Shown here piece after piece: positions 54,521-57,383 of a stretch of DNA of 64,000 nt. Source of the DNA: an uncultured Phycisphaerales bacterium (GTDB lineage Bacteria; Planctomycetota; Phycisphaerae; Tepidisphaerales; Tepidisphaeraceae); the NCBI GenBank assembly GCA_963844715.1, contig CAWJPJ010000007.1, positions 800,001-864,000 of the forward strand, written 5' to 3'. Both the position numbers and the translations under genes were made by a program. The notes below the pieces were generated by a model, which was not told where the DNA came from, made no database searches, and worked only from the letters and a program-made list of their open reading frames with translations. Every line of letters starts with the position of its first letter. The first letter of the stretch is position 1.

Positions 54521-55767
54521 GTGTCAGAGCCCCTATTAGCATTACTCCAGCTGGCCGCCGATCGGCTCCGGGCCCGCGACGTGCGCCAGGCCGCCGACAT
54601 CTACCAAAAAATCCTCTCCAAGAATCCGAACCAGCGCGAAGCCCTCGCGGGCCTCGGCACCGTCCACTACGCCGCCGGCGACTACCCTCGGGCCGTCACT
54701 CTTCTCGCCCAGGCCGCCAAAATCGGAGACTTCTCCCCCGAAATTCACGTCAACCTCGGCATGGCACTCCTCGCCGTCGGGCAACTCGACGCCGCCCTCG
54801 CGGAAATGCAAGCGGTCGTCGACCGCCATCCCGACATGGCTTCGGCTCGGCTAGGTTGCGCCACCGCGCGTGCGCCAAGGGCCAAATCGCCGGTGCGATC
54901 GAGCACATGCGCCACGCCGTCCGCCTCCATCCTCAGGCAAGCATCGCCGTCCAACTTGCCGACCTGCTCGACATCGGCGGCCGGCGCCGCGAGGCCATCG
55001 AAGTCTTTCAGCGCGCCGTCGCCGGCATCACGCCCCCCGTCGATTGGCTATGCCGCCTCGCCGAAATGCTTCTGGCCGACCATCAATGCGACGCCGCTCT
55101 TGAAACCTACCGCCAGGCCGTGGAAATCGCCCCTGAAAACGCCGCTGTCCGCGCCCTCCTGGCCAACGCGCGTCAGCTATCAGCGTGAGTTCGACGAAGG
55201 CATCGCCCAGCTCCGCCGCGCCGTCGATCTCGCGCCCCAGGACCCCGCCATCCGCAGCGCCCTCCTCATGGCCCTGCTCCATCACAAAGACACCCAGCCG
55301 CGTGACTTTCTAACCGAGGCCAAAACCTGGAGCGCCCGGCACGTCAAACGCCCGCCCACGCCTCCGCGATATGAAAACACCCGCGACCCAGACCGCCCGC
55401 TTCGCGTCGGCTACCTCTCGACGTTCTTCCGATTCTCCGCCGAGGCTCACTACCTCCTCCCCATCCTCCAGCATCATGACACCGCCAATGTCGAAGTCTT
55501 CTGCTACCCCACGGGAAACATTTCCGATTCCGTCACCGAGCGCTGCGCCGCGCATCCAAAAATTGGCGTCCCCTCCACGGCGTCGATGACGCCGCCGCCC
55601 ACGATCTCATCCGCGCCGACCAAATCGACATCCTCGTCACCCTTGATAACCACCTCCAGGACAACCGCCTCCCTCTCCTGACGCGCAAACCCGCCCCCAT
55701 CTGCGTCACCTGGCTACTCTCCGCCGCCACCACCGGCTGCGACGCCATCGACTACCGTCGGTCATAA
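54521..55767 (+). pseudogene. TPR O-GlcNAc transferase (SPINDLY/GT41-like), 3'-truncated at the repeat
   Basis: TPRs, RPLRVGYLS, RADQIDIL, RKPAPI.VTWL...TTG.DAIDYR, then TAA inside the repeat; second catalytic lobe missing. Confidence 0.8.
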
Positions 55768-56580
55768 AGGGGTCACTTCCCATTCTGTCCGCCGTTAGCC
55801 GGCGATTCGCGGGCCTGCTTCTCCCTCCTGCGCCTCTGTCGAGGCGACAGTGATTCCAAAGGACCAGCCCGCCGCCCGCGCCGATTCAAGGTCTGCTCCA
55901 CGCCCTGCGCCGCCGCCATTCGGCGCACCCAAGCCGTCGTGCCCAACGGCCGATCGCGAACCACGTGCTCGCGCATCCGCTTCAGCTCCGGCGCCTCCAT
56001 CGTCTCATTCACGAGCCCCAGCCAGTCCCGAGGCCTGGGCATCGGCCACTGCGCCAGCGGCGGAAGAGGTTGCCGATTCACTCGCTGATGCAAACTCGAC
56101 CAAGCCCACGCGTCCGCTCGCCGGCAAAGTCCCGCACGCAGCGGATTCGCTTCGACATATCGGCAGAGCGTGAGAAAATACGAATCTTCCTCAACGCAAA
56201 AATGCTTGTACCGTCCCTGATAAAGATGCCCGCTATCTTCGTCATGATGGGCATGATGCCGGCGGACATGCGTCACCGTAATCCATCGCATGAACTCCTG
56301 AAGCTGCCGTGCCCCGCGCGGACGCACCACCAGGTGCCAGTGATTCGGCATGATGCACCAGGCCAGCAGATCCACGCGATAACGCCGCAATCCTTCGACC
56401 AGGCAACCCAAAAACGCCTCATAATCCCCGGGCTTATCAAAGATCCGCATTCGCCTATTACCGCGGTTTAGCACGTGATAAACTACATCCGGAATGATTC
56501 GCCGCAGAGGTCGAGGCATGCGCCAAAACATAAACGAAACCCCGTCGTCGGTCAATTCGGGAAGTGACCCCTTTATGACC
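55760..56580 (-). mobile_element. HUH/Y1 transposase element with perfect 22-bp terminal inverted repeats, 821 bp
   Basis: GGTCATAAAGGGGTCACTTCCC at 55760-55781 and its exact reverse complement at 56559-56580. Confidence 0.85.
55773..56519 (-). CDS. Y1 tyrosine transposase (IS200-like / RAYT-like)
   Basis: MPR..R, YHVLNRGN, IMPNHWHL (HUH), GHLYQGRY, RYVEANPLRAGL, WSS. Confidence 0.92.
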   Translation of the reverse strand: MPRPLRRIIPDVVYHVLNRGNRRMRIFDKPGDYEAFLGCLVEGLRRYRVDLLAWCIMPNHWHLVVRPRGARQLQEFMRWITVTHVRRHHAHHDEDSGHLYQGRYKHFCVEEDSYFLTLCRYVEANPLRAGLCRRADAWAWSSLHQRVNRQPLPPLAQWPMPRPRDWLGLVNETMEAPELKRMREHVVRDRPLGTTAWVRRMAAAQGVEQTLNRRGRRAGPLESLSPRQRRRREKQARESPANGGQNGK

Positions 56581-56625
56581 TCATTTTTTGCTGTTTCTGC
56601 CCGGGGCTAAAATTCTGGCAATCAA

Positions 56626-57051
56626 ATGATGATCAATTTATTAAAGGACGGCACTAAGATACATCTGTGGGGTGTTGTACAGTCCCATTGGGGCATTGTG
56701 CGCAAGGATAAGCGACTTGGCCCGCTCGAGGGGAATGCCATGGACGCGAGAGCTCTTTTGGCCGATATGGCGCGGTCATTGATTCCTGCCTACTGGCCGC
56801 AAGCGCCGTTTCTGTTTATCGGCTTGGAGTCCGAATCGTTAGGACGCGACTTAAAGCAATTTAAATTGCCAAGATTTCTCGCCGTGGGCCTTTTCATCTG
56901 TAATGATCCCGTTAGCGATAAATCGAAGGAAGGTTCTTTCCTGTACGTTTCCTGGGAACAAGCGAAGCTAGAGCCCCAAATTAGCCCAGAGAATTATGAG
57001 GCGATCGTGAGTATAAGTTGGTCTTCACATGCGAGCGACTTCAGTTGGTAG
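56626..57051 (+). CDS. Hypothetical cargo protein, 141 aa
   Basis: Lower GC than its neighbours; fills the interval between repeat copies 2 and 3; TAAAAT upstream. Confidence 0.65.
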   Translation: MMINLLKDGTKIHLWGVVQSHWGIVRKDKRLGPLEGNAMDARALLADMARSLIPAYWPQAPFLFIGLESESLGRDLKQFKLPRFLAVGLFICNDPVSDKSKEGSFLYVSWEQAKLEPQISPENYEAIVSISWSSHASDFSW

Positions 57052-57069
57052 CGGGGCGGTATAAAAGGG

Positions 57070-57103
57070 CGGTCATAAGGGGGTCACTTCCCATTCTGAC
57101 CGC
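57070..57103 (+). repeat. Third copy of the Y1-element end
   Basis: cggtcataagggggtcacttcccattctgaccgc matches 55759-55792 at 32 of 34 bases. Confidence 0.9.
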
Positions 57104-57383
57104 GCATTGCGCTATCGCGTCCAAAAAGCTTTTAAGCGGCGTCCTTTCGCCGCTTACGGCGCGCTGTCATGGCACGTCGATCTATTGAGCCGTAACTCAA
57201 TCCCGCAGTCGCGGAGCCCCGCAGTCGCGGAATCTGTCCCCGCATCGCATCGCCCAAGATCTAATTATTATTCAACAACCAAACTCCCCATCCCCCCAAA
57301 CGCATCAAAAGTGTCAACTTTTGTCCGCGCTTTCCCCGCCAGCCCCAGTAATTTCTTCCATTTCTCTCTCAGCTTTCCCCGCC

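Follow-up and report, generated by a model that had tools for sequence, protein, structure and literature searches.

A TIRtron-type element with a third repeat copy bracketing an orphan gene in an uncultured Phycisphaerales bacterium

In a 64,000-nucleotide stretch of the genome of an uncultured Phycisphaerales bacterium (assembly GCA_963844715.1, contig CAWJPJ010000007.1, positions 800,001 to 864,000; hereafter the window, in whose numbering plain positions are given, the genome that holds it being called G000), a HUH/Y1 transposase gene is framed by inverted repeats, and a third repeat copy lies beyond a small open reading frame (ORF). The element, at 55760-56580, almost certainly belongs to the TIRtrons, RAYT-like genes framed by terminal inverted repeats (TIRs) with the motif GGGGWSAS, also named TIRYTs (Di Nocera 2013, PMC3733652), and hence constitutes no new class; the uncharacterised HUH class proposed in an initial annotation, which was made from the sequence alone, had already been named in that paper. 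With little better than even confidence, we further read the locus as a TIRtron with a fixed outer end, at which passengers accumulate as a by-product where foreign DNA has been joined.

Results

Gene, ends and motif of the element

The class assignment follows from the joint presence of a RAYT-like HUH/Y1 gene, flanking inverted repeats and the GGGGWSAS motif. The protein matches Y1_Tnp (PF01797, E 3.7e-15) and carries the motifs H60-W-H62 (NHWH), Y121-x-x-x-N125-P (YVEANP) and W140-S-S, followed by a C-terminal helical extension; H60, H62, Y121 and N125 are invariant in 117 sequences (117 of the 120 listed homologues, aligned with the window protein as first row, of 2750 matches in all). A structure model built from the alignment (pLDDT 92) is most similar to the E. 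coli RAYT 4ER8 (Z 16.6, root-mean-square deviation 2.5, 159 residues aligned) and less so to IS608 TnpA (Z 9.9), in a fold search that barely covered the C-terminal part of the model. Invariant residues and predicted fold together point to a RAYT-like tyrosine transposase with HUH motif and catalytic tyrosine. Among NCBIfam models, the protein is closer to the RAYT model (NF047646, 67.8 bits, cut-off 80) than to the IS200 model (E 0.027; NF033573, 14.7 bits, cut-off 55), yet below the cut-off of both. No Pfam helix-turn-helix or Bac_DnaA_C match was obtained in the window protein or 116 relatives, the extension being helical in the model. Judged by its motifs, the transposase is probably a member of TnpA-Y1 subclass 2.1, which comprises 20 of 26 TIRYTs according to Quentin 2018 (PMC6006769) and equals RAYT group 1 of Bertels 2017 (PMC5581495): NHxH, Y-x-x-x-NP, the SS tail motif and a length near 238 aa have their counterparts in NHWH, YVEANP, WSS and 248 aa.

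The layout initially described, a repeat on either side of the transposase gene and a third one beyond a 141-aa ORF, was recovered with the PF01797 match between copies 1 and 2 (Table 1). The 22-mer is exact at 55760-55781 (+, copy 1) and 56559-56580 (-, copy 2) and has one mismatch at 57071-57092 (+, copy 3), with 0 occurrences expected by chance (100 shuffles); copies 1 and 2 form a perfect inverted repeat over 22 bp and one of 83% over 35 nt. The full unit is a 31-nt imperfect palindrome with a GGWCA outer and a TGWCC inner arm. Its description as non-palindromic and without a strong hairpin thus applies to the 22-mer, which alone folds at z -0.14, and fails for the 31-nt unit, with -11.1 kcal/mol (z -4.8) in copy 3 and z -4.6 on one and -1.4 on the other strand of copy 1, while folding of copy 2 is weak (z about -0.3). 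Copy 3, for which 34 bp of identity had been claimed, agrees with copy 1 at 32 of 34 bases; the additional matches make up the repeat's inner arm and overlap the transposase stop codon (55773-55775), which falls within copy 1. As it matches the downstream end (R, copy 1) over 33 nt and the upstream end (L, copy 2) over 22 nt, copy 3 is typed as R. The motif GGGGTCAC, of the GGGGWSAS type, is present in all three copies, and these TIRs are distinct from GTAG/CGTC repetitive extragenic palindromic (REP) sequences.

Table 1. Features of the element and its surroundings in the window
Feature	Position	Strand	Remark
TPR and glycosyltransferase-41-like host gene, 5' part	54521..55759	+	Pfam TPR, weak Glyco_transf_41
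R, downstream TIR (copy 1)	55760..55790	+	31-nt imperfect palindrome with GGGGWSAS
TIRYT gene, RAYT-like HUH/Y1 transposase	55773..56519	-	248 aa, intact; PF01797
Promoter-like site, TTGACC-17 nt-TATGTT	56527..56555	-	2 sites found against 1.0 expected by chance, weak alone
L, upstream TIR (copy 2)	56550..56580	-	
Passenger interval between outer edges of L and R'	56581..57070	.	490 bp; GC 0.49 against about 0.59 in the genome
Orphan ORF	56626..57051	+	141 aa, or 103 aa from 56740; stop 19 nt before copy 3
Degenerate partial repeat (stutter, outer part) just before copy 3	57052..57070	+	read from sequence
R', spare downstream end (copy 3)	57071..57101	+	direct to copy 1

The repeat is a moderately abundant, dispersed family, as TIR families can be. 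A profile search of the genome gave 12 matches above 14 bits, of which 10 exceeded 26, compared with 1 for the reversed genome, and the search for further copies that had been suggested thus found about 10 in the genome, with the exact core in 7 of 141 genomes of the family and in neither of two congeners. Framing by inverted repeats is common among relatives: an inverted repeat of at least 16 nt frames 37 of 47 homologous loci chosen by protein similarity alone and is missing from 10 (5 loci with short flanks were dropped; the window, its paralogue in the same genome and a locus of the unpublished genome G004, on which no conclusion depends, were excluded), and one of at least 17 nt occurs in 14 of the 19 loci of another set. 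The initial statement that the ends fit neither IS200/IS605 elements nor GTAG/CGTC REPtrons is borne out by the missing GTAG foot, the TIRs and YVEANP. IS200/IS605 (Y-x-x-x-Q, about 150 aa, subterminal hairpins without TIRs) was ruled out by YVEANP, the length of 248 aa, the TIRs and the 14.7 bits of NF033573; a REPtron of RAYT groups 2 or 3 was ruled out by the lack of GTAG/GTGG-footed REP hairpins by the gene and the 67.8 bits of NF047646, below 80.

The start codon is likely ATG 56519, which gives 248 aa, judged by sequence; the homologue consensus opens with MPR. The inner arm of copy 2 supplies the -35 box of the promoter-like site, 7 nt past which this ATG sits; the spacing is shared by homologous loci, and from this predicted site the transcript would probably be leaderless.

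That an assembly artefact produced this layout is practically inconceivable. Long-read indel errors do occur nearby, but short-read contigs of the same strain bridge the junctions of copy 1 (X1, 55608-56045; X4, 55659-55862; no differences) and copy 3 (X2, 56951-57281) and, taken together, differ from the window by one inserted base only, and matching architecture recurs in other genomes and metagenomes. The misassembly anticipated as a possible refutation is thereby largely refuted by contigs from raw data, which came from 4 runs of one soil-metagenome study, possibly of the source site. Among these low-depth contigs no inversion or excision joints were present, which is uninformative on rare forms. 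None of the runs listed as containing the sequence is an RNA data set.

Extra repeat copies facing the upstream end

The third copy that brackets a small gene recurs elsewhere. Among nine loci of the closest family (same repeat family, L leading into an apparently intact gene start, enough flank), a set mostly fetched by repeat pattern and hence favouring loci with more copies, an extra copy faces the outer edge of L in seven at 89-1382 bp (window, L019, L027, L035, L045, L046 and L087; negative, L078 and L086; L037 was excluded for its short flank). It is of the R type in 6 of these 7. Outside these nine loci, L171 and L195 were left unclassified in R/L typing. In loci chosen without this bias, a facing copy was found in 6 of 32 against 3 of 1047 control pairings. 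GC of the passenger interval is 0.47-0.54 in the closest family, and all five cargo genes of that family are directed away from the transposase, with their ends 13-121 nt short of R'; the cargo of L085, L169 and L171 is oriented from R to L. Passengers starting inside a gene were observed in L027, L085 (twice), L171 and L195.

In the window, the 103-aa form of the orphan ORF is the protein-database entry, with itself as the sole database match; no Pfam or NCBIfam match and no homologue were found. An Atlas lead to calpain-III (best 0.89, 142 shared features, low recognition) was rejected as weak. The ORF looks foreign, and its arrival as a passenger is more probable than acquisition through a new cassette system. 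Of the cassette capture and shuffling initially put forward, passenger capture at the outer repeat edge has comparative support and a dedicated shuffling system has none; likewise unsupported is a flipping of the cargo by copies 2 and 3, given the common orientation of the five cargo genes.

A sharp outer boundary and variable inner length

Conservation starts sharply at the GGWCA outer boundary across 100 distinct copies, which were taken from the window's genome, from five further genomes of the family and from metagenome contigs. Arm positions 3/29 pair in 67 copies against 46 expected and positions 6/26 in 50 against 32, a covariation that is suggestive, given that the copies share ancestry and that both arms were in part prescribed by the search patterns. 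Partial copies, or stutters, lie on the outer side of 11 of 98 copies and on the inner side of 1 of 98. Extra end copies retain 30-87 nt of the element's inner sequence, L ends about 130-150 nt.

At the window locus, the TPR/GT41-like host gene is truncated exactly at the outer edge of copy 1: of four paralogue alignments three end at or before 55758 and none extends past 55908. As its 3' part was not found beyond copy 3, a deletion or a one-ended event is indicated instead of a clean insertion. In both same-genus genomes apt directly adjoins an lpxA-like gene, so that about 2.85 kb at the window locus are extra and absent there. Frameshifts at 54869 and 55542 in the host gene, where short-read contigs carry one more base each, are probably long-read errors.

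Whole elements also duplicate. A 788-bp TIRtron of another family stands at two G000 sites with 99.5% identity and different flanks, and at L085 (G137:C1:789000-799500) a third family is represented by three tandem 785-bp TIRtrons of 99.2-99.9% identity, between which stand two different low-GC fragments of 0.7-0.8 kb that start inside a reading frame (a gene tail) and finish with a small ORF. By eye, without a formal count, no target-site duplication was seen at the edges of L085, L040, L044, L050, L052 and the two G000 duplicates. G000 contains no fewer than four further TIRYT families (C6:612518, C8:62837, C6:877874, C7:477139, C7:978191), each of which has a repeat of its own, with two copies at 99.5% identity and others broken by a frameshift or an insertion sequence (IS).

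An insertion sequence in the repeats and neighbouring repeat features

A DDE_Tnp_1 IS of about 1.0-1.1 kb, putatively of the IS903 group, sits inside the repeat at the same base in G000 C3, L019, L039, L041 and L063; the loci seen in all are G000 C3:65247-66307 (L115), L019, L039, L041, L063, L015, L085 and L118-L137. At 20 sites selected solely through the IS ends, among the first matches listed for two other genomes, the 9-bp duplication is perfect in 15 and near-perfect in 2; 19 of the 20 targets start GG(A/T/C)C, and about 12 correspond to TIRs from the TIRYT families of this study. These target sequences show a preference of the IS for the G-run in the TIRtron repeats of several families. 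IS elements that target REPs have been reported before (PMC1525189).

On the same contig, 9 kb (G000 C3:61234-70234) are 99.87% identical to G141 C4 (L099), in genomes filed under different genera, which reflects either very recent transfer or a binning error. In one metagenome, repeat doublets occur with an AT-rich spacer of constant length (24 nt) and highly variable sequence, and in both core orientations (L028, L032, L033, L040, L043, L044, L050, L052). At G000 C6:21314 (L106), a weak repeat copy separates a small low-GC ORF from the beginning of an RHS-like fragment. Just inside copy 3, the window holds a terminator-like hairpin (57133-57156) and a 14-nt tandem duplication (57202-57231). 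A second small palindromic repeat family, starting GGACAAAA, is found at 57306-57326 (-) and at 13 other places in G000; it is TIR-like in outline and some copies are near other TIRtrons, while no cognate gene was identified.

Discussion

The proposed mechanism starts from the general chemistry of HUH enzymes, which, according to Corneloup 2021 (PMC8266576), leave a 5'-phosphotyrosine that is resolved by a 3'-OH. The TIRYT would bind the repeat on single-stranded DNA and, to judge from the boundaries alone, cut at or a few bases from the outer GGWCA edge; the cut strand would be held as 5'-phosphotyrosine and then be joined to a free 3'-OH elsewhere. Outer-edge cutting with joining to varied 3' ends is inferred from the coexistence of outer-side stutters, end copies and whole elements, all of which a fixed outer end with a variable carried length could yield. 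Foreign DNA that comes to lie between the outer edges of R and L, at a circle junction or in a tandem insertion, would become a passenger, and decay of one element copy to R' would leave the order R'-cargo-L-tnp-R, with a truncated host gene on the R side. Passenger pick-up would be a by-product, from which selection would retain intact small genes. Copies 1 and 3, being on the same strand, are predicted to be able to release a circle of 1311 nt.

Several observations count against this account. The window's element is single-copy in its genome, and according to Bertels 2017 (PMC5581495) just 6.3% of group 1 RAYTs are duplicates. A facing extra copy is absent from all 5 truncated L-end loci of G137, and in the unbiased set only 4 of 32 loci have a facing copy with real cargo, L175 and L184 being double-ended elements. 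The outer-side stutters could instead stem from replication slippage. No dinucleotide before the repeat is conserved (-1 base C 47, G 28, A 19, T 15), no cleavage, circle or junction was observed, and the available genomes include no closely related strain in which an empty site could be compared.

The extra copies might alternatively be explained by a sedentary gene that, in the manner of REPs, spreads short copies of its ends locally into low-GC regions that were variable beforehand, so that the cargo is ordinary neighbouring DNA and never travelled with the element; this we regard as rather unlikely. Repeat dimers and clusters are indeed common, as are singles, dimers and clusters of dispersed TIR copies in PMC3733652, and most TIRtrons lack a third copy. 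Solo copies (n=30) show no GC difference between outer and inner side (0.592 and 0.595, p 0.74), and a gene end lies on the outer side of 13 of 30 and on the inner side of 8 of 30, with 17% at random positions, a weak excess; a cassette signature at solo copies was accordingly not supported. Against mere scattering of ends, however, stand the predominance of the R type among extra copies (6 of 7), the 30-87 nt of inner sequence that extra copies keep, near-identical copies of whole elements and passengers that start within genes. The accumulation of passengers at a fixed outer end is contested from the opposite side by a selected, integron-like system, in which the TIRYT as a single-strand integrase captures and stacks small genes, often of the immunity type, at the R/L junction; this we judge improbable. 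It agrees with the uniform cargo orientation and gene ends close to R' in the closest family, with the gene tail and small gene seen in L171, L195 and L085, with the tandem array of G137 and its different cargo, and with L027, whose cargo follows an 18-codon gene tail after 1 nt and has TsiV/Imm52/Imm64-like leads under the tool's bar. A further pair of diverged solo copies (L105, G000 C4:14198-15790) faces 1.6 kb of low-GC sequence with three orphan ORFs in the same orientation, a stretch that sits just upstream of an rpsJ-like gene. In picocyanobacteria a subclass 2.1 gene faces variable procA genes (10.1101/2020.03.09.984088), but its authors later saw no strong evidence for a causal link.

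Against an integron-like system stand the opposite cargo orientation in other families (L085, L169, L171), the solo copies without cassette signature and the immunity-like lead for a single cargo, with none for that of the window and no immunity Pfam match in any of 26 neighbouring ORFs. Long arrays of cassettes that each end in a repeat were not seen; the loci showed single passengers and a single short tandem array, next to the weak solo-copy result. Beyond the picocyanobacterial preprint, no published description of cassette capture by the TIRYT class was found in a search that subscription journals mostly lay outside of. The broadest version, that TIRYTs are single-strand HUH integrases which join their outer edge to foreign fragments, trap small genes (for instance orphan immunity genes) between R and L and mobilise or stack these in circular form, appears doubtful. 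Far less credible is an invertible switch in which copies 2 and 3, inverted relative to each other and 490 bp apart, flip the cargo: the same orientation was found at 5 of 5 closest loci, and HUH strand transfer joins sites on one strand, whereas these copies lie on opposite strands.

Of 141 genomes of the family, 101 contain TIRYT homologues (E 1e-40 or better), and the TIRtron class, although named and common, has no bench tests in the literature that was found. The comparative data turn it into a testable model with a fixed outer edge, variable carried length and passengers at the R/L junction, and display recent, IS-like duplication in a group usually called domesticated. Should capture be under selection and not incidental, a new route of gene acquisition would emerge, an integron-like one run by the largest unstudied RAYT subclass. 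The window locus illustrates a known oddity well, and the comparative hints add modestly to it.

Comparison with known systems

With TIRtrons/TIRYTs as described in the accessible parts of PMC3733652, the element shares a partly self-complementary TIR, a TIR overlapping the 3' end of the gene and dispersed single, dimeric and grouped copies; those parts are silent on passengers between R and L, tandem arrays with different cargo, stutters and TIR-targeting IS. Subclass 2.1, or group 1, likewise has a C-terminal extension, no GTAG REPs and several divergent copies per genome, some of them recent duplicates, but its W/FQ motif is YQ in the window protein.

The REPtron of E. coli TnpA-REP (4ER8; PMC8266576) resembles the element in fold, catalytic motifs and imperfect hairpin repeats present as monomers and dimers; unlike its repeats, those of the window have no GTAG/GTGG foot, just two ends frame the gene, about 10 copies stand against hundreds in the genome, and whole elements duplicate. 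IS200/IS605 elements have the HUH/Y1 core in common and, as here, no target duplication seen, whereas the window element has Y-x-x-x-NP instead of Y-x-x-x-Q, 248 aa, no tnpB and the same repeat, inverted, at both ends.

In IS91/ISCR one-ended capture, integrons and recombinase-associated immunity arrays, too, a fixed end is combined with variable captured DNA, and small genes end just before a repeat. Their enzymes differ from the TIRYT, and neither a long cassette array nor a cassette promoter was seen at the window locus.

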